Part shown: in pieces, positions 4,954-17,367 of the stretch
How the letters are laid out: every line of letters begins with the position of its first letter
How positions within the stretch are numbered: position 1 is the stretch's first letter
DNA from: an uncultured Woeseia sp.
Lineage (GTDB): Bacteria; Pseudomonadota; Gammaproteobacteria; Steroidobacterales; UBA11654
Length of the DNA: 64,000 bases
Assembly: GCA_964454905.1 (NCBI GenBank)
Contig: CAYVTR010000005.1
Coordinates: forward strand, 6,876 to 70,875
Reading direction: 5' to 3'
The notes under the pieces: model-generated
Seen by the model: the letters and a program-made list of their open reading frames with translations, nothing else
The model's database searches: none
Told to the model about the DNA's origin: nothing
Translations under genes and position numbers: made by a program

Positions 4954-7900
4954 TTAAAAGCTGTACTTGACCCTTATTCCAACCTGTCTAGGATCAGGAA
5001 TGCTTGCGTACCAAGCGTTACCGATACTTGGTGCCGCATGGACACTAGGCGCAAACATTTTCCCGTTCGGGTTTTGCCCAGGGACAAAACAACCGCCACT
5101 CACACCACCGCCACCAGGGACATTTTCTCCACCAGGGAACAAGGCGCAATCAGTAAACACCATACCAAACCTAAAGTCTGAGTTACCAATATCAGGGCCG
5201 TTACCGCCAGAAATTACAGTGTCATCATCAAGTAAGTTTTTAACATAAAGAATGCCTTCCCAGCTGCCTTTTGAGATACCCGCCCTAAAGTCAAGCCTCC
5301 AGTATTCTTTAAACCAGGCATTGTTATCAAAATCAACCGCACGATCATCTTGGTATCTGGCATTAAGCTCGGTAAAAAACATAGCGCCGGTATCCCTCAG
5401 CTCGTCAGAATAATTTAGATTAATATTGGCCGCATGTTTTGGCGCCCTTTCAAAGACATTACCGGTTCTATCAATAACACAGGTTTTCTCACCACCTACT
5501 GTGGTTAAGCTACAGTTACCGGCACGAGATATTTCTCCAGCACCAGTAGAAGTGAGCTTAAAGTCAGTGTATTTAGAGTCCAGATAAGAGTAACCGCCTG
5601 TCAAAGTAACTTGGTCATTGATAGCAAGAGCTAAGTCAATCTCTGCCCCAAAAACCTCACCACCGGCCGCATTTTTTATAACGTTTCCAAGCGAATTACC
5701 AATAACTCTTTGGACACTAACCTGTCGGTCTGTGTAGTCTTCGAAGAAGAGAGCTCCGTTAAGCCTTAAAGAACCGTCTCGTAAAACAGACTTAAAACCA
5801 AGCTCGAAAACATCCATAATTTCTTCATCAAATAGAATTTCTTCTGGGTTTCCATCAGCGTTAGGGTCTAAGCTGAAAGCACCAATGGCCAAAGTTGAAA
5901 ACCCACCCGGTTTTCTAGCCTCAGCAAAAGATCCGAAAATCAAAACATCGTCACTAATTTGATAACTAAGAGTTAGTTTTGGCGATACATATTGTCCACC
6001 AGTCCTAAAAGTTGTTTCCTTCATTGGAAGCGGCGCAAAACCCCTCCAACCAGCAGGAACATTAGCTGGGATTTGAACAAACGCCATACCAACGTAATCA
6101 CACCGCGCACCAGAACCACAAACCGAGACAGAACCAGGGCCACCAGATGGGGCATCAATACAGTCTACATATGGGTTATTAGGACAACTGTCAACACCAA
6201 AATTACCGTTGTAAACAGGGCCCGTCATTTTTTCACGTTCATCAGTCCAACGCATCTCTAGAGATGCTGACATTTTTTCAGAGAAGTTATAATCAAACAT
6301 TGTGTATAAGGACGCATGGTTTGTGTCTCTGATGTTAGGGGTAATTGGCCTTGCCGCACCTAGTGCATCAGCATAAGGAGCAATGTCTCTGTCGGTATAA
6401 CCACAAGGGCCTTGGAAATAAGATAAACCAAGATCTTCAACTTTTACCACATTACCAAAATAGTCTCTTGTAAGCCTAATAAAACAGCGCGAACCATGGG
6501 CCATGCCTGTGATATTGTTTGAGTTTTGTGTCATTTTTTCGTGCCAATATAGAGCACCTGCCGACATATTAAAAGGGCCATCGCTTTTGGTAGATAACCT
6601 AAACTCCTGACTAAACAGCTTAGTTGGTCCCCAAACATTAAATTCAACCATATGCCAAGGTAAGACCTCTTTGTCAATATCGTATTGTTGAGATACATCC
6701 ATGTTTGCTATATGAGTCCATGAGTTAAAGTCTACGGTCTCACCAGAGTAACCAACATTAATTTGGGCCCTTGACCCTTCTTTTGTTGAGCCAAACATAT
6801 CCCTGCCAGCGTTGTAACCTCCATGCGCTAGGTTGCGATCAAAAGCAATGGTTAGGTCATCTCCGTCTGGGAAATAGCCGTCATAATCCCGATGCTCCAT
6901 GTCATCAAAATGACCCATGTAATTGATCCCTGTGTTTCTGTCAACATTGGTTCCCGTGCTTCCGTAACCAACTTGCGTGGCATCTGGAATCATAGGCCCA
7001 CCTGGGAACGCTGGTTTCAATGGGTACCAAGGAGAGGCAAAGGGAATTAACCCAGCTTGTGCTGGAGTAAAAGCCATTACATGCTCAAACCACATGGCAT
7101 CATTATCACAACTTGCATCACGAACAAAACCACCGTTACATTTGCTTGCAGCTTGCGGCACTGGCCGTATAACATTTCCAAGAACTTTTGCTTGGGCAGG
7201 CGCGTCATACTCGTCACTCACATAGTCGAGACGAGTTTTAATACTTAACCTGTCATTCGGTTCAATAAGAAACGTAAGTGAAGCACCAACACCTTCACCG
7301 CCGCCCACATTAGCCCCGGTGTGAGAGTTCTGGTGAAAACCATCAAAGTCCCACGCTAGAGCGTTAAACCGAAACCCCATAGTGTCTGATATTGGACCAG
7401 AAGAACTCAACCTTGCTTCATGAAAACCGTCTTGGGCAACATCAAGGCTTGCAGTGTTTGTAAACGATTCTGAAGGGTCCTTGGTTACGTATTGAATCGC
7501 ACCAGCAAAAGCTGTTCTTCCATAAAGAGCCACTTGTGGCCCCTTAACAATCTCAACCCTTTCAATGTCCATCATTCTAGGAGATATTAAAGAGGACGAC
7601 CCAGCTGTACCCATGGTCTCACTGGAGATGTCAACACCATCAAAAATATTGGCAACAACAGGGCGTCCACGCATGTTGATAATACCCCGTATTGCGATCC
7701 TAACATCATCTGGAGCAAACCCTTTGTCATAAGTTAATGACGGATCCAGTTTGGTGACATCACTAAGATCTGTGATTCCCAGGCGCTCAAGCGTTTCCCC
7801 TTGAATGGCTGTAACTGATATAGCAACATCTTGTAAATTTTCCTCTTTTTTACGCGCCGTGACCACCAATTCCTCAAGCACTTGAGAAAAAAGGTTTGGA

Positions 7901-7956
7901 GTCGCGATAAATATTGCGAGACTAGCTCCCACAATGAAACGATTAATGTGTTTCAT
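4954..7956 (-). CDS. TonB-dependent outer-membrane receptor
   Basis: About 1000 aa. Signal peptide, TonB-box/plug region (EELVVTARKKEENLQDVAISVTAI), long beta-barrel, terminal aromatic ...RVKYSF. Start taken at MKHINRF (7956), preceded by GGGGGAGAA. Confidence 0.9.
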   Translation of the reverse strand: MKHINRFIVGASLAIFIATPNLFSQVLEELVVTARKKEENLQDVAISVTAIQGETLERLGITDLSDVTKLDPSLTYDKGFAPDDVRIAIRGIINMRGRPVVANIFDGVDISSETMGTAGSSSLISPRMMDIERVEIVKGPQVALYGRTAFAGAIQYVTKDPSESFTNTASLDVAQDGFHEARLSSSGPISDTMGFRFNALAWDFDGFHQNSHTGANVGGGEGVGASLTFLIEPNDRLSIKTRLDYVSDEYDAPAQAKVLGNVIRPVPQAASKCNGGFVRDASCDNDAMWFEHVMAFTPAQAGLIPFASPWYPLKPAFPGGPMIPDATQVGYGSTGTNVDRNTGINYMGHFDDMEHRDYDGYFPDGDDLTIAFDRNLAHGGYNAGRDMFGSTKEGSRAQINVGYSGETVDFNSWTHIANMDVSQQYDIDKEVLPWHMVEFNVWGPTKLFSQEFRLSTKSDGPFNMSAGALYWHEKMTQNSNNITGMAHGSRCFIRLTRDYFGNVVKVEDLGLSYFQGPCGYTDRDIAPYADALGAARPITPNIRDTNHASLYTMFDYNFSEKMSASLEMRWTDEREKMTGPVYNGNFGVDSCPNNPYVDCIDAPSGGPGSVSVCGSGARCDYVGMAFVQIPANVPAGWRGFAPLPMKETTFRTGGQYVSPKLTLSYQISDDVLIFGSFAEARKPGGFSTLAIGAFSLDPNADGNPEEILFDEEIMDVFELGFKSVLRDGSLRLNGALFFEDYTDRQVSVQRVIGNSLGNVIKNAAGGEVFGAEIDLALAINDQVTLTGGYSYLDSKYTDFKLTSTGAGEISRAGNCSLTTVGGEKTCVIDRTGNVFERAPKHAANINLNYSDELRDTGAMFFTELNARYQDDRAVDFDNNAWFKEYWRLDFRAGISKGSWEGILYVKNLLDDDTVISGGNGPDIGNSDFRFGMVFTDCALFPGGENVPGGGGVSGGCFVPGQNPNGKMFAPSVHAAPSIGNAWYASIPDPRQVGIRVKYSF

Positions 7957-8080
7957 GCATTCTCCCCCTTTTAGATATAACATAAGTTAATACAGTATAA
8001 CAATGTAACCGAGCAACTAAGAAAATCCAATTAAAAATACAAGAATAATTAAGATATTGTTGTTATTTAACAAAAATCAC

Positions 8081-11359: not shown

Positions 11360-12424
11360 ATGAAACGAAGAGACTTGCTTATTGGTGCCACAGGACTTGC
11401 TGCTTCGAGTCAAATCAGAGCCGCAAACAAAAAAACCTACAAATGGAAAATGGTCACCACTTGGCCACCAAACTTTCCAGGGTTGGGCACTGGAGCAATG
11501 AGGATGGCAAAAAATATTGAAAAAGCTTCGGGCGGCAGAATCAAAATAAAAGTTTTTGCTGGCGGGGAGCTGGTGCCAGCCTTTGAAACATTTGATTTTG
11601 TTTCAAGCGGCGGAGCAGAAATGGGACACGGCGCTGCTTACTATTGGCGAGGAAAAAGCGAAGCAACACAAATTTTTACAACACTACCCTTTGGTTTAAA
11701 CGCGATGGAATTAAACGGTTGGTTTTATTATGGCGGTGGGATGGAGCTTTATAGGGAACTGTATGAATCTTTTAATTTAAGACCATACCCAGCAGGAAAC
11801 TCTGGATGCCAAATGGGAGGGTGGTTTAAAAAACCCATAAACTCTATCGAGGATCTACAAGGCTTAAAAATGAGAATACCTGGGTTTGGTGGCGAGGTTT
11901 TAAGACGAAACGGCGGGACCCCGGTGGCAATGCCAGGGTCAGAAATATTTACGGCGCTCCAAACAGGAACCATTGATGCAGCTGAGTGGATCGGCCCCTA
12001 CAACGATCTAACATTTGGTTTTCACAAGGTGGCCAAACATTATTACTATCCAGGGTGGCACGAGGGCGGGCCAACACTTGAATGCATTGTAAACAAAGAG
12101 GTTTATGACGGGCTTCCAGAAGATCTACAAACAATAATTGATATTGCAGCCAGCGCAACCAACGATAGGATGCTGGCTGAGTTTATGGCACGAAATGCGT
12201 TTTCTTTAAAACAAATTGAAATGATGGAGGACATAAAGATCGCACCATTTCCAAAAGAGGTTATGGATGCTTTTAAACAAAAAGCAGAAGAAATAATTAC
12301 AGAAATAATTACCAAAGACCCTAGGTTTGCAAAAATATATAAATCTTATTCAGAATACAAAAACACGGTCGAGAAATGGACAAAGATCTCTGAGTATGCG
12401 TTATTAAAAAACAGATACGAATGA
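11360..12424 (+). CDS. TRAP transporter substrate-binding protein (DctP family) with twin-arginine signal
   Basis: MKRRDLLIGATGLAASS Tat-type signal. DctP-like body (KWKMVTTWP, GGELVPAFE, AEWIGPYND). The tracked ORF starts 24 nt upstream at a TTG. Confidence 0.85.
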   Translation: MKRRDLLIGATGLAASSQIRAANKKTYKWKMVTTWPPNFPGLGTGAMRMAKNIEKASGGRIKIKVFAGGELVPAFETFDFVSSGGAEMGHGAAYYWRGKSEATQIFTTLPFGLNAMELNGWFYYGGGMELYRELYESFNLRPYPAGNSGCQMGGWFKKPINSIEDLQGLKMRIPGFGGEVLRRNGGTPVAMPGSEIFTALQTGTIDAAEWIGPYNDLTFGFHKVAKHYYYPGWHEGGPTLECIVNKEVYDGLPEDLQTIIDIAASATNDRMLAEFMARNAFSLKQIEMMEDIKIAPFPKEVMDAFKQKAEEIITEIITKDPRFAKIYKSYSEYKNTVEKWTKISEYALLKNRYE

Positions 12425-13386
12425 AGTTACTTTATTTAACAATGGCTATTTTGTTTGTAACCCCTGTTGGGGCACACGATGAATTATTTCCAAGTTGTTC
12501 TTCAAAGCATCCCACCCATGATATAGAGAACACAAGAGCAACCCCCAAACCTGTTGCTATTTATAAAGAGCCTCCAGAATACCCAGCAGGAAAGCGAACC
12601 AACGGTGCTGTGATATTAGAATATACGGTTACAAAAGAAGGCGAAACTACAGACATAAAGGTGTTGAGCTCATCCTCTGGGGCTTTCTCAAGCAGGGCAA
12701 TAAAAGCTCTAAGAGCATTTAGATACCAACCAGTATTAGTAGAGGGCAAACCTGTTGCTACAAAAGGACTAAAACACAAGTTTGCATTCGAATTCGAGTC
12801 CTCTAAACCCACGTTATTTATGGAGAGTGAGACCCTCGATTTTGATCCTAGCGCTCTTAGTAAATTTATAAAAAGCGTTTCAAGAATTAAAACAAAAACA
12901 GGATTGGAGAGAATTTCAAAAGCACTCGAAAAAGAGACAAACGGTTTTCACAAAGCAGTTCTATATTATATACAGTCCTCAAAAGAGTACGATTTAAATC
13001 CTGAGAACACGAACGCACGAAAAAAGAGCCTAGAACTTTCCTTGGTCGAGCTAAAAACACTCAACCAAGACGAGTACAATGTAATTAACTTGAGATCAAT
13101 AGCTATAGCAGCCCTTAGCTCAGTCCTCATCTTTGAAGAAAAAAACCAAGAAACTATTGATCTTTTAGCGCCCTTTTTAAAAGAGGCGTGGAGCAACAAT
13201 TTCATTAGACCGAAAGTAATTTATGATGCCACTGTTAATTTCTCTATTGCCTCCTATAATGCGAGGGAGTTGTGCTACGCATACAACGGCTTTGACAGGG
13301 CCATACAACAAGGAAATTCGCTAGGCATTAAAAACCCTAACTGGGTCAAGTACAGAGACACAGCAAAACAATATATGAAAGACTGA
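12421..13386 (+). CDS. secreted TonB C-terminal-domain protein with a helical C-terminal half
   Basis: Signal peptide (…VGA/HD). TonB_C-like block PPEYPAGKRTNGAVILEYTVTKEGETTDIKVLSSSSGAFSSRAIKALRAFRYQP. The last ~190 aa are unassigned. ATGA overlap with the preceding gene. Confidence 0.65.
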   Translation: MKLLYLTMAILFVTPVGAHDELFPSCSSKHPTHDIENTRATPKPVAIYKEPPEYPAGKRTNGAVILEYTVTKEGETTDIKVLSSSSGAFSSRAIKALRAFRYQPVLVEGKPVATKGLKHKFAFEFESSKPTLFMESETLDFDPSALSKFIKSVSRIKTKTGLERISKALEKETNGFHKAVLYYIQSSKEYDLNPENTNARKKSLELSLVELKTLNQDEYNVINLRSIAIAALSSVLIFEEKNQETIDLLAPFLKEAWSNNFIRPKVIYDATVNFSIASYNARELCYAYNGFDRAIQQGNSLGIKNPNWVKYRDTAKQYMKD

Positions 13387-13431
13387 TTCATGCTATAAAA
13401 ACACAGTTGAAAAATAGACGAAGATCTCCGA

Positions 13432-14850
13432 ATGCACCCTTTAAAAAAACAGATAAAAATAAAGAGATTACTAATAGTTTTTTTGTTTTTTGTACCAAGC
13501 CAATCATTTCAGCAAACCATTACTGAAAGAGATGAATACAACGCTTTTATATCTTTTGTTGATAAAAAAACCGTAGCAAAAGAAATAAAAAATATTAAAG
13601 CTATGTCTTTGGTGCCTATAGCGTTAGGGGTTAAAGATAATATTGATATTGAGGGGATTTCAAACACAGCTGGCTCCATCGCTTTACAAAACAACAAACC
13701 CAAAAAAAGCGCTTATCTAGCTAAACACTTAAAAAGTGGAGGGTACTATGTTGTGGGAAAAACCAACCTTTCTGAGTGGGCTAACTTCAGGTCCACCCAC
13801 TCAGTGAGCGGATGGTCTAGCTTGGGCGGCCAAACAGTTAATCCTTATGGGGTGAACCGCAACCCATGCGGCTCTAGCTCTGGTTCAGCTGTTGCTGTGG
13901 CAACGGGGTTGGTTAGTGTAGCGATTGGCACTGAAACCAACGGCTCCATTTCATGCCCTGCATCTGTTAATGGTGTGGTTGGGATAAAACCAACTCTAGG
14001 CCTTGTGAGTCGCAGTGGAATTATCCCGATATCTCACTCTCAAGACACAGCTGGACCAATGGGGGCGAACGTGAAAGACACAGCAAGGCTCCTGAGTTAT
14101 ATGGCTGGTTTTGACCCTGAAGACCCAACCACCTCAAACATACCAAAAGACATGCAGTTAAACTTTTCTACAAACCTTAGTAAAACAAGCCTAAGAGGTA
14201 AAACCATTGGTTTGATGTCAGCATCATCAAATGAGCCAGAGGAAAACAGGTTAATTATTAAAGCAAAAACAATTCTAATTTCAGCTGGAGCTAAAGTGGT
14301 TATGTTAACTGATAAGGGGGACTACCCTGGCGAAGAAGAGTATTTTGTTCTTTTGTACGAATTTAGGGAGGGGATAAATAAGTACCTCTCAACCCGTCCC
14401 AACCAAATAAAAAACTTAAAAGAGCTTATTAATTTTAACATTAAGAACAAGAAAACAGTTTTAACCCACTTTGACCAAGACATCTTTCTTCTGAGCGAAC
14501 AGACCAAAGGACAAAAAGAAAAATATTTAGACGCACTAAAAGTTACAAAAACAATCTCAAGAGGGCGTATTGATAGTTTGCTTAATAAAAATGGGCTGGA
14601 CGCTATCGTTGGTTTAACTAGGGGACCAGCTTGGGAGATTGACTATAAGGGAGGAGATAAAACAGCTTCGCAAAAACAACTTTCTTGGGGAACCGGCGGT
14701 TATGCTGCTATGGCGGGCTATCCCCACATCACCGTACCTTTGGGCTTTGTAAACAACTTACCTGTTGGGCTATCGTTTATCTCGTCCGCATGGCACGACA
14801 AAAAAATAATAGAAATGGCCTATGCTTTTGAGCAAGCTAACAACCTATAA
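13432..14850 (+). CDS. amidase-signature family amidase, secreted
   Basis: 472 aa. N-terminal signal peptide. AS motifs KDNIDIEG and GGQTVNPYG...CGSSSGSAVAVATG. Confidence 0.85.
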   Translation: MHPLKKQIKIKRLLIVFLFFVPSQSFQQTITERDEYNAFISFVDKKTVAKEIKNIKAMSLVPIALGVKDNIDIEGISNTAGSIALQNNKPKKSAYLAKHLKSGGYYVVGKTNLSEWANFRSTHSVSGWSSLGGQTVNPYGVNRNPCGSSSGSAVAVATGLVSVAIGTETNGSISCPASVNGVVGIKPTLGLVSRSGIIPISHSQDTAGPMGANVKDTARLLSYMAGFDPEDPTTSNIPKDMQLNFSTNLSKTSLRGKTIGLMSASSNEPEENRLIIKAKTILISAGAKVVMLTDKGDYPGEEEYFVLLYEFREGINKYLSTRPNQIKNLKELINFNIKNKKTVLTHFDQDIFLLSEQTKGQKEKYLDALKVTKTISRGRIDSLLNKNGLDAIVGLTRGPAWEIDYKGGDKTASQKQLSWGTGGYAAMAGYPHITVPLGFVNNLPVGLSFISSAWHDKKIIEMAYAFEQANNL

Positions 14851-14874
14851 CATCAATATAAAAAAGGAATAACT

Positions 14875-15498
14875 ATGAGTTCATCAAACGAAGTTTTTTT
14901 GGGACAAAAAAAATCTATTGCTAGGTTCAACATGGATACAAAAAAAGCAATCTGGAGCAAATCTGTCGAGGGCACTCCTTATATTATTACTACATGTGGA
15001 GACAACATATTGGTCCAAAGCATGAATTCTTGGCAAACAAAAAACTTCCACCAATTATTAAATGCCCACACAGGCAAAGAGGTTTGGAGCACCCAGGATA
15101 TTAAAGGCTGGATAGTTCCCGCATACCACAATGGAGATATTTATTTTTTTAACCACAAGGGACACATCTGTAAACTTTGTGGGACCAAAGGCATTTTGTT
15201 GTTTGAAACAAAATTTAAAAAATGGCATGACACAACACAATATGTGTTGGCTATAGCACAGAATAAAATTTACTTAACTTCTAAGAAAAAAACTTTTGAG
15301 GTGAGCCAAACATCAGGAGAGTGCATAGAGATTCCAGAATTGGCAAATTTCACCCAAGATAATATAACAGCAGCTTGCGGTAATGGGGTTGATCAAATGG
15401 CTTGGGTTTCTGTGGTTGCTTCCGCTGGTTCTGGTGGTGATGGTGGTATGGTAATGGCGGGTGGAGGCGACGGCGGCGGTGGAGGCGACGGCGGCTAA
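14875..15498 (+). CDS. hypothetical protein, weak PQQ/beta-propeller-like repeats, Gly/Asp-rich C-terminal tail
   Basis: 207-aa ORF. Repeated ...TKKAIWSK... / ...HTGKEVWST... blades. No signal peptide seen. The tail is GSGGDGGMVMAGGGDGGGGGDGG. Confidence 0.5.
   Translation: MSSSNEVFLGQKKSIARFNMDTKKAIWSKSVEGTPYIITTCGDNILVQSMNSWQTKNFHQLLNAHTGKEVWSTQDIKGWIVPAYHNGDIYFFNHKGHICKLCGTKGILLFETKFKKWHDTTQYVLAIAQNKIYLTSKKKTFEVSQTSGECIEIPELANFTQDNITAACGNGVDQMAWVSVVASAGSGGDGGMVMAGGGDGGGGGDGG
15460..15495 (+). repeat. perfect 18-bp tandem duplication (GGTGGAGGCGACGGCGGC x2), locally very GC-rich
   Basis: Direct reading gives 15460-15477 identical to 15478-15495. It encodes GGGDGG twice, immediately before the stop codon. 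Confidence 0.9.
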
Positions 15499-16871
15499 CC
15501 ATATATTTGGCTAGGTAGCCACGTTACTAGGCCAGGAAAAACAGCTATTAAAACAAGCATCAGCAGCTGAATCAACACAAACGGAAGCACCCCTTTGTAA
15601 ATGGATTTTGTTTCTATTTCCTCCGGGGCAACACCCCTAAGATAAAACAAAGCAAAACCAAACGGCGGAGTTAAAAACGAGGTTTGTAGGTTAATCGCAA
15701 TTAACACCCCCAGCCAAACCGGATCAACCCCTAGAGCTAGAACTATAGGCGCAACAATAGGCACCACCACAAAAGTAATCTCAATAAAATCAAGCACAAA
15801 ACCTAATAAAAACATGGCCAACATAACAACAATCAAAACACCAGTCACACCCCCTGGCACCGAAGATAAATAAGTCTGTACCAGCTCATCCCCCTCGTAC
15901 CCTCTAAAGACTAGCGAGAAGATTGACGCCCCAATTAAGATTAAAAACACCATGCTTGTCAACTTGGCAGTTTCTTGACAAACATCTTTTAAGACACCAA
16001 AAGACAGTTGTTGTTTTGTTGCTGCCAACAACATTGCACCAACAGCACCAACACCGGCTGCTTCAGTGATTGTTGCGACCCCAAAAATAATTGACCCTAA
16101 AACCGCAACCATTAAAAAAAGAGGTGGGATTAATACCCAAAGCAAACTTCCCGGTGATTTTTTCTCATTACCCTTGAGTTCAGCCGGCGGCATCGTTTCC
16201 GGTTTTAAAAAAGAAATAAAAACAACATATAACATATACAACAACACCAAGCCCAACCCAGGGATAATTGCACCAACAAACAAGTCACCCACCGAGACGG
16301 TTTCTGGCGAATAGATGCCTTGTTGTAGTTGTGATTGTTGAAAAGAGGAAGACAAAACATCACCCAACAAAACCAAAACAATAGAGGGTGGAATTATTTG
16401 ACCCAAGGTTCCAGATGCGGCAATCACGCCAGTAGCTATCTCGGGGTTATATCTTCGCTTTAACATGGTTGGCAAAGACAAAAGACCCATGGTAACCACG
16501 GTCGCCCCAACAATGCCGGTGCTAGCAGCCAACAACATACCAACCAGAACCACAGCTAAGCCTAAACCACCCCTGTAACCTCCAAACAACGAACTTAGGG
16601 TCTCTAATAAATCCTCAGCCAGTTTTGATTTTTCCAAAGTAATTCCCATAAACACAAACAAAGGCACAGCAATAAGCGTTTCGTTGGTCATGATTCCAAA
16701 AAGTCTGCTTGGCAACGCACTAAGGTAACCCACCTCAAAATTTCCAGTGATCAAACCAACACCAGCAAAAAGCAAAGCAACACCAGCTAAAGTAAAAGCA
16801 ACCGGGTAACCAATGAGCAGGAACAGGATCACAGTAAAGAAAAGAAGCACTGCTTCAATCATTGCGACCAT
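15495..16871 (-). CDS. dctM: TRAP transporter large permease (DctM)
   Basis: 458 aa polytopic protein with DctM-like composition. Immediately follows and overlaps a DctQ-like gene. Confidence 0.88.
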   Translation of the reverse strand: MVAMIEAVLLFFTVILFLLIGYPVAFTLAGVALLFAGVGLITGNFEVGYLSALPSRLFGIMTNETLIAVPLFVFMGITLEKSKLAEDLLETLSSLFGGYRGGLGLAVVLVGMLLAASTGIVGATVVTMGLLSLPTMLKRRYNPEIATGVIAASGTLGQIIPPSIVLVLLGDVLSSSFQQSQLQQGIYSPETVSVGDLFVGAIIPGLGLVLLYMLYVVFISFLKPETMPPAELKGNEKKSPGSLLWVLIPPLFLMVAVLGSIIFGVATITEAAGVGAVGAMLLAATKQQLSFGVLKDVCQETAKLTSMVFLILIGASIFSLVFRGYEGDELVQTYLSSVPGGVTGVLIVVMLAMFLLGFVLDFIEITFVVVPIVAPIVLALGVDPVWLGVLIAINLQTSFLTPPFGFALFYLRGVAPEEIETKSIYKGVLPFVLIQLLMLVLIAVFPGLVTWLPSQIYG

Positions 16872-17367
16872 TACCTATGGATTTGAAGGCAACAACCAAA
16901 CCCTGCATAAAAAGCAAAAGACCAGTCAATGGAATAGTTGTTTTTAATAAAGGCACAAAAGGGTAGGCTAACCCCCCAGCATCTTTAGAGGCTTCTTTTG
17001 TTACCCAAGAGGCTTCAACATAATCAAAAGAGCCAAAGACCAAAAACAGTGAGACCGGACACAAACAAAACAAACTCCCAAAAAAGTTAATGCGATTTTG
17101 GGTGTGTTTAGACCATTGTCGATAAAATACATCAACTCGCACATGAGAGTCTTCGCTCAGCGCGTAGGCAGCAACCAACAAAAACACCATCGCGTGCATC
17201 CAAGTAACCAGCTCTTGAAGCCAAATCCAGCCGACAGAAAACACATACCTTAGGACCACCACCCCAAAAACGGTGACCACCATTACCAACAATAACCAAG
17301 AGACGGTTTTACCAACAGAAATGTTAATTTTATTAAAGGCGAATAAGACCTGTTTTATAAGGACCAT
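16855..17367 (-). CDS. dctQ: TRAP transporter small permease (DctQ)
   Basis: 170 aa, four TM segments. 17-nt overlap with dctM. Confidence 0.8.
   Translation of the reverse strand: MVLIKQVLFAFNKINISVGKTVSWLLLVMVVTVFGVVVLRYVFSVGWIWLQELVTWMHAMVFLLVAAYALSEDSHVRVDVFYRQWSKHTQNRINFFGSLFCLCPVSLFLVFGSFDYVEASWVTKEASKDAGGLAYPFVPLLKTTIPLTGLLLFMQGLVVAFKSIGNGRND

Follow-up and report, generated by a model that had tools for sequence, protein, structure and literature searches.

In TonB transducers such as Escherichia coli TonB and Vibrio anguillarum TonB2, a C-terminal domain with a YP motif follows a His-motif membrane anchor and a Pro-rich spacer. Domains of this kind (TonB_C) bind their partners by adding a strand to a sheet, and tetratricopeptide repeat (TPR) solenoids hold peptides or proteins in a groove. 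A TPR-type protein is also part of the TPR-protein-associated TRAP (tripartite ATP-independent periplasmic) transporters (TPATs) of Treponema, in which TatT binds the solute-binding protein TatP (reviewed in PMC5812351). Here, we describe a locus in which both kinds of domain occur in one secreted protein. The locus occupies positions 11360–17367 of a 64,000-nt stretch of DNA, the window, from an uncultured marine gammaproteobacterium of the SAR86 group (assembly GCA_964454905.1, contig CAYVTR010000005.1), and the protein, which we denote TonBC321, is encoded between the TRAP binding-protein gene dctP and the large-permease gene dctM. We find that TonBC321 belongs to a narrow, fast-evolving family that appears from its distribution to be the ancestral and oldest resident of a variable gene slot, and that the three genes now in this slot are independently gained and lost cassettes. 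At a probability of roughly 0.55, we read the locus as a TakP-type TRAP transporter with a flexible slot holding three independent cassettes, of which TonBC321 would act in the periplasm as a soluble adaptor expressed along with DctP. What is new is the TonB_C/TPR family and the long time it has stayed at a TRAP locus; there is nothing unusual in the transporter, the amidase or the way the island varies.

TonBC321 (321 amino acids; 12421–13386, plus strand) begins inside the preceding gene: its ATG overlaps the dctP stop codon as ATGA at 12421–12424. Its N terminus, MKLLYLTMAILFVTPVGA, is a short Sec-type signal (residues 1–18, 12421–12474) with a predicted cleavage site before HDE (…VGA/HD) and no His in its hydrophobic core; this signal, like the other export signals reported here, was judged by eye from the N-terminal sequence. 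The short core and a small residue (Ala or Thr) at position −1 are conserved in the family (alignments A1 and A4). The mature protein starts with the motif HDELFPxC(P/S)SxHxxH (residues 19–33, 12475–12519), in which H19, D20, L22, F23, C26 and H30 are invariant in 17 aligned sequences down to 32% identity. The TonB_C domain (residues ~47–127, 12559–12801, with the YP motif at Y54 and P55) matches PF03544 over residues 56–124 (4.4e-12; 46.7 bits against a cut-off of 24.6) and TIGR01352 (32.1 bits against 27.1), and with a profile of the family the E-values against PDB entries of TonB C-terminal domains reach 1e-19. In the AlphaFold model this part has a β-β-α-β fold, for which Foldseek returns 2k9k, 1u07 and 2grx. 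The remainder consists of nine helices (residues 143–318, 12847–13374) modelled with a predicted local distance difference test score (pLDDT) mostly above 90, and Foldseek matches them to the TPR domains of KLC1, PlcR, Rap and NASP; we are confident that this modelled region of roughly 190 residues is a TPR-like solenoid. By sequence, no relative of this solenoid turned up in Pfam or the PDB, and no Pfam family besides TonB_C matches TonBC321 at E ≤ 0.1.

An earlier note on this DNA, made from the sequence alone, had placed six open reading frames here, with dctP separated from a convergent dctQM pair, and had seen in the 321-amino-acid product a clear TonB_C domain, a helical domain of ~190 residues and an ATGA overlap with dctP. 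All six reading frames with their domains, coordinates and strands were confirmed, the three calls on TonBC321 proved right, and Pfam searches bear out the identities given to DctP, DctQ, DctM and the amidase. The twin-arginine signal it read on DctP and the signal peptides it read on TonBC321 and the amidase are also seen by us, the latter two as Sec-type signals. The observation thus holds, and the interpretation built on it is partly supported, as set out below.

Whereas TonBC321 shares the C-terminal-domain fold and the YP motif with E. coli TonB and with the C-terminal domain of V. anguillarum TonB2 (2k9k), it differs from TonB transducers in almost everything around that domain. A test for a membrane anchor failed: the hydrophobic stretch is about 13 residues long, lacks the His that contacts ExbB/ExbD and runs directly into VGA/HD, and the same is true of all homologues. 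A cleavable signal thus stands in place of the His-motif anchor, and the 28 residues that separate it from TonB_C hold the conserved His/Cys motif instead of Pro-Glu or Pro-Lys repeats, so the missing anchor and Pro-rich spacer had been noted correctly. The TonB_C domain is N-terminal, with the TPR-like domain after it, and exbB and exbD do not adjoin the gene, the neighbours of which are dctP and the amidase gene. The host genome (1.49 Mb in 40 contigs, 95% complete) encodes a separate, ordinary TonB of 218 amino acids. Having neither a membrane anchor nor an ExbBD-contact motif, TonBC321 cannot transduce energy.

The motif at the mature N terminus is most readily explained by a disulfide. 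Even the most distant family members retain LFxxC together with C285 (in a WC pair) and lack the His residues, which favours a bond between the N-terminal peptide and the last repeats over a metal site. A histidine-brace or other metal site was rejected as a general feature, as three close homologues have a Lys before the His and distant members lack these His residues. A lipoprotein reading of LFPSC was likewise rejected: Cys26 is far beyond the hydrophobic core, eight residues downstream of where cleavage is predicted, and follows the charged HDE, and there is no lipobox.

The TonBC family comprises 14 clusters (40–97% identity, all full length), and homologues occur at 23 metagenome loci, down to 33% identity. 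Ratios of nonsynonymous to synonymous substitution (dN/dS) of 0.13–0.42 indicate purifying selection; TonBC is a real gene under selection. In a profile search of 1.84 billion representative proteins, the full architecture appeared in some eight clusters, of which about five were close and three distant, and every other match was to the TonB_C domain only. A scan with the family alignment of 185,579 species genomes found no second carrier, the window genome being the only one; relatives were not found in the 19 other genomes of the host's taxonomic family, nor, genes like that of the distant member P0220 included, in 400 genomes of the order. A literature search for secreted TonB_C/TPR proteins returned nothing relevant. 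As far as we could find, the linkage of such a secreted protein to the gene for a TRAP binding protein, an arrangement that the earlier note did not recognise as described either, is novel.

Narrow as it is, the family is tightly linked to one site. A convergent dctM lies downstream of TonBC in 18 of the 19 contigs with a readable downstream flank. In the dctM tree, TonBC carriers fall in all four major clades, and genomes without it are interleaved in three; this distribution points to long residence with three or more losses, and to a transporter that can do without the gene. TonBC also evolves faster than its neighbours, being 33–40% identical where dctM is 77–83% identical. Deeper lineages have other genes beside it, which encode a secreted GH29 fucosidase (with an overlapping start), an S15 X-Pro dipeptidyl peptidase, a methyltransferase or a desaturase. 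One deep lineage (L048) carries, between dctP and TonBC, a gene (552–2096) for a 515-amino-acid MORN-repeat protein with a TonB_C domain of its own, and its slot thus houses two different TonB_C proteins.

The site itself, the gap between the 3′ ends of dctP and dctM, is a small flexible island. It is empty in five species (G013, G007, G003, G012 and G015), holds the amidase and propeller genes in G009, G006 and L033, TonBC and the propeller gene in L036 and L038, TonBC alone in L042 and L057, and all three in the window genome and in L026–28, L039 and L040; in L044 the propeller gene precedes TonBC. Amidase, TonBC and propeller genes have therefore each been gained or lost independently of one another. 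The order of five genes seen in the window is absent from 16 of 16 other species representatives of the genus; in the neighbourhood comparison that the earlier note suggested, the position of TonBC upstream of a convergent dctM is thus conserved and the five-gene order is not. Slot content ranges from 0 to ~31 kb and also includes genes for a methyltransferase, a fatty-acid desaturase, MORN proteins (in L024, where the order differs, and in L045), a BBE oxidase and an ABC/FtsX system. Hydrolases recur in it: amidase, Amidohydro_1, GH29 and S15.

The amidase gene forms one such cassette. The stretch 13410–14865 (plus strand) is exactly missing in L036, where blastn alignments break at 13409 and 14866 and the flanks are 93% and 87% identical to the window. 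Direct repeats were considered as its borders and rejected, since the borders show just weak microhomology of the GAA..ATA type. Identity along the locus is mosaic: G009 is 92% identical to the window in the flanks (trkH/trkA/uvrD), 83% in dctM and 66% in dctQ; L026 is 80% identical in the flanks and 97% in dctM; and between the window and L036 the synonymous divergence of TonBC is just 0.04, against 93% identity for the region as a whole. These values suggest recombination within the locus.

Several contigs record other states of the slot. In L034 and L035, a remnant of the amidase C terminus (6786–6971 in each; 55 residues, ~417–470, ~70% identity) lies just upstream of the propeller gene, and the slot holds genes for a BBE-type oxidase, a Vgb-lyase-like protein and an Amidohydro_1 enzyme; here the amidase cassette looks to have been replaced by other genes. 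In G006, dctM is 32 kb away from dctP on the same contig (C28, 5560–39736, partly covered by L014), with ~31 kb between the propeller gene and dctM, and this island at the same site contains an FtsX/ABC system and AurF-like genes, as in L034/35. Contig L062, titled uncultured Woeseia sp., carries dctM, dctQ, trkH, trkA and uvrD at 87–96% identity to the window and is, judging by these identities, almost certainly a SAR86 contig binned to the wrong genome.

The transporter that frames the slot is of a familiar kind. TakP of the TakP/TakQM system holds sodium and pyruvate through Y100, Q156, R177, E214, W215 and E240 (PMC1839085). DctP (11360–12424, plus strand), a TakP-type solute-binding protein with a twin-arginine type signal (MKRRDLL...; MKRRDLLIGATGLAASSQIRA), matches PF03480 at 7e-59 (199.8 bits against a cut-off of 23.4), and its closest solved relatives, at 1e-84 to 1e-104, are the pyruvate and keto-acid binders 4pet (1e-104), 5cm6, 7ug8 and TakP itself (2hzk). 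Its residues Y95, Q151, R172, E209, W210 and E235 match all six TakP ligands at a constant offset of 5. Because the full set is kept, we predict a binding protein of the 2-oxo-acid type. On the opposite strand, convergent with the four plus-strand genes, lie dctM (15495–16871, minus; Pfam 2e-85, 287.7 bits; TIGR00786 336 bits against 268), the sole copy of the TakP-partner type in the genome, and the small-permease gene dctQ (16855–17367, minus; Pfam DctQ 1e-16, 61.5 bits), which overlaps dctM by 17 nt. The sequences thus point to one TakP-type (2-oxo-acid) TRAP transporter. Like TakP/TakQM of Rhodobacter sphaeroides (2hzk/2hzl) and the pyruvate-bound 4pet and 5cm6, it has the six ligand residues, and DctQ/DctM partners are present; unlike TakP/TakQM, its dctP is convergent with dctQM, accessory genes lie in between, and its ligand type is a prediction from sequence. 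Gene order across the genus runs POT–tatC–dtd–dctP, converging on dctM–dctQ–trkH–trkA–uvrD, with dctP and dctQM convergent everywhere; the 'split' of the transporter is therefore ancestral.

The two other genes in the slot encode an amidase and a half propeller. The amidase (472 amino acids; 13432–14850, plus strand) starts with a Sec-type signal, MHPLKKQIKIKRLLIVFLFFVPSQSF, and matches PF01425 at 1e-77 (262.5 bits) and the peptide amidase Pam of Stenotrophomonas maltophilia (1m21) at 5.5e-104, with ~55% identity over 407 residues. The motifs GKTNLSEWANF, CGSSSGSAVAVA and GTETxGSIxCPA are conserved with respect to 1m21, and the Lys/cis-Ser/Ser motifs GKTN, GSSSGS and GTETNGSI align with it. 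The enzyme is thus predicted to be a Pam-type periplasmic peptide amidase. It resembles Pam (1m21/1m22) in its amidase-signature Lys and Ser motifs and its signal peptide; unlike Pam, it falls under the NCBIfam equivalog cut-off (PRK08137, NF006006; 487.9 bits against 534) and is a strain-variable cassette in SAR86, its substrate being assigned by similarity. Where TonBC is absent (L033, 5631–5645; G009; G006), it is the amidase gene that overlaps the dctP stop as ATGA, and the amidase signal peptide reads MTKQALSASFFVV... in these lineages and MHPLKKQIKIKRLL... in TonBC carriers.

The third slot gene (14875–15498, plus strand) encodes a 207-amino-acid protein, and its stop overlaps that of dctM by 4 nt. 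The earlier note saw PQQ-like blades in it, which holds at the level of fold and not of family: an AlphaFold model built with 34 homologues (pLDDT 78) shows ~17 strands in roughly four blades, and Foldseek matches it to BamB at 4e-9 (query TM-score ~0.5, about half of BamB covered), whereas the Pfam PQQ_2 score of 25.6 bits is under the 27.6 cut-off. BamB, the eight-bladed PQQ-like lipoprotein of the β-barrel assembly machinery (BAM) complex, is its best structural match, but the 207-amino-acid protein is about half the size and has neither a lipobox nor a signal peptide, the latter, on which the earlier note is silent, being absent also from 33 aligned homologues. It ends in a disordered Gly/Asp-rich tail (15427–15495; pLDDT below 50). 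A tail of the GGDGGGGGDGG type occurs in most of the 34 aligned homologues (alignment A2), down to 31% identity, and is missing or truncated in P0034, P0042 and P0115; its origin as a recent local duplication artefact was accordingly rejected. The family is large (111 clusters); a scan with the single protein returned four loci, and homologues at 59–64% identity sit at unrelated loci in other SAR86 genomes.

The earlier note joined these genes into a processing-plus-uptake module in which an amide-linked substrate, possibly imported through a TonB-dependent receptor, is hydrolysed in the periplasm by the amidase and yields a carboxylate that DctP captures. In such a module TonBC321 would link the steps. 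Every part it names is real, three of the four plus-strand products carry export signals, those four genes are closely spaced with no terminator-like site between them, the five-gene order recurs in the diverged contigs L026–28, L039 and L040, and hydrolases enter the slot repeatedly. Both chemistry and distribution nevertheless speak against it. Pam-type enzymes release peptides, not small 2-oxo acids, and the pathway fails because a binding protein that groups with 4pet, 5cm6, 7ug8 and TakP 2hzk, and keeps all the pyruvate and cation ligands of TakP, is here paired with a peptide amidase. It fails also because the amidase is a strain-level accessory, a presence/absence cassette: the transporter stands alone in five species, TRAP genes occur without the amidase in at least five species, and TonBC occurs without it in L036, L038, L042 and L044. 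The hydrolases that adjoin TonBC in other lineages have chemically unrelated substrates, and the propeller lacks a signal peptide. That the gene order is not conserved and that DctP groups with 2-oxo-acid binders are, moreover, two outcomes that the note had named beforehand as counting against it. An amide-to-carboxylate pathway feeding the transporter is thus not supported, and we regard it as highly improbable.

What TonBC321 looks like is better accounted for by a role as a soluble adaptor in the periplasm, produced along with DctP. In this proposal, the partners of which we infer, the TonB_C domain would dock by strand addition on a TonB-box-like segment, most plausibly in one of the TonB-dependent receptors, of which the host genome encodes at least 14; a further protein or a peptide would occupy the TPR groove; and the N-terminal peptide would be fastened to the solenoid through the conserved Cys26–Cys285 pair. 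Among the PDB matches of TonBC321 are 2grx and 2gsk, the TonB–FhuA and TonB–BtuB complexes, in which TonB_C binds by such strand addition. SAR86 bacteria are among the most abundant uncultured heterotrophs in the surface ocean and rely strongly on such receptors. One receptor gene lies in the window itself (4954–7957), downstream of the POT permease gene; at 38–73% identity between species it is far more variable than POT (80–93%) or tatC, and may thus add another variable gene to a region that is otherwise syntenic. Co-expression of dctP, TonBC, the amidase gene and the propeller gene is plausible from the sequence, because the gaps between them are short (−4, 45 and 24 nt), a plus-strand scan found no terminator-like site between the four genes and the ATGA overlap of dctP and TonBC recurs in six contigs (L026, L036, L037, L038, L039 and L040). 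Promoter and terminator scans as such returned no more sites than in shuffled sequence.

Several observations weigh against this adaptor. Not one of 354 DctP columns separates TonBC-carrying from TonBC-lacking lineages, which argues against a tight complex with DctP. In L033 it is the amidase gene that follows dctP and carries the ATGA overlap; whichever gene comes next has it, so the coupling belongs to the 3′ end of dctP and is not specific to TonBC. As the whole POT–tatC–dtd…trkHA–uvrD region is syntenic, the conserved position of TonBC could reflect inheritance alone. The linkage to dctM also has its exceptions: L041 has no dctM within 1.2 kb of TonBC, and the distant homologue P0182 (26% identity) lies on a 2.5-kb contig with no adjacent TRAP gene. 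Finally, TonB C-terminal fragments in the E. coli periplasm are dominant-negative inhibitors of TonB-dependent transport, so that a free TonB_C domain could inhibit instead of bridge.

The nearest known concept for TonBC321 is a TatT-type TRAP accessory protein, although the sequence and lipoprotein tests for that relationship failed. If it were a T component, its TPR-like domain would bind DctP directly and receive or pass on the ligand while TonB_C tethered the complex at the outer membrane or cell wall. As in the TPAT of Treponema pallidum (TatT/TatP(T)/TatQM), a documented precedent (PMC5812351), the gene for a helical periplasmic protein of the TPR type lies next to that for a TRAP binding protein, with which it is probably co-expressed, and the fold, the ATGA coupling to dctP and the place inside the TRAP locus in those 18 of 19 contigs all fit. 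Yet TonBC321 is unrelated to TatT in sequence (no Pfam match to TatT at E ≤ 0.1 and, in a PDB search with the family profile, no hit to a TatT chain at E ≤ 10), is no lipoprotein, has an extra TonB_C domain and is encoded downstream and not upstream of the P gene. The binding protein also belongs with the hydrophilic 2-oxo-acid type and not with TatP, which is of a hydrophobic-ligand type, no residue of DctP tracks the presence of TonBC, and the transporter persists without this dispensable gene in many lineages; we consider a T component unlikely. A slightly smaller chance goes to TonBC321 as a fourth component of a classical, non-TatT TRAP system, a soluble coupler that would dock on the TonB box of a ligand-loaded receptor and recruit DctP or periplasmic hydrolases.

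The inhibitory potential of a free TonB_C domain can also be taken as its function. TonBC321 would then be a decoy or brake that competes for TonB boxes, damping receptors or intercepting TonB-dependent bacteriocins or phage proteins, and its adjacency to TRAP genes would be hitch-hiking. Its fast evolution, its strain-level presence and absence in a hypervariable slot, the lack of an anchor with which to energise transport and the effect of TonB fragments in E. coli are all in keeping with this. Against it, a conserved TPR domain and Cys pair would go unexplained, persistence at one locus in each of the four clades is more in line with vertical descent than with a defence gene that moves, and dN/dS stays below 0.45 throughout, with no positive selection seen at this resolution. 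A search with PADLOC matched no defence family, on which ground a defence-system reading was rejected; overall, a decoy or brake seems about as doubtful to us as the coupler. It is very unlikely that the three middle genes are related neither to one another nor to the transporter and have simply collected where insertions between convergent 3′ ends do no harm. A slot of 0 to ~31 kb with many unrelated genes, propeller homologues at unrelated loci and a neighbourhood that is syntenic whatever its genes do would be expected from such chance adjacency; TonBC, however, unlike the propeller gene, is found elsewhere in only one clear case, the distant P0182, and in the window lineage it is start/stop-coupled to dctP.

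These results correct an attractive metabolic story: the amidase is an independent add-on and does not appear to supply the importer. They also make the slot a clean, small case of how, in a streamlined genome, the interval between convergent genes can vary one gene at a time. To our knowledge, the way in which substances that have crossed the outer membrane are handed on through the periplasm is little understood. If TonBC321 were a coupler, outer-membrane import would be physically linked to inner-membrane uptake in a bacterium reliant on TonB-dependent receptors. A secreted, anchor-less TonB_C domain joined to a protein-binding solenoid, and long kept among transporter genes, offers a concrete candidate, readily open to testing, for this kind of link, or for a natural TonB brake.

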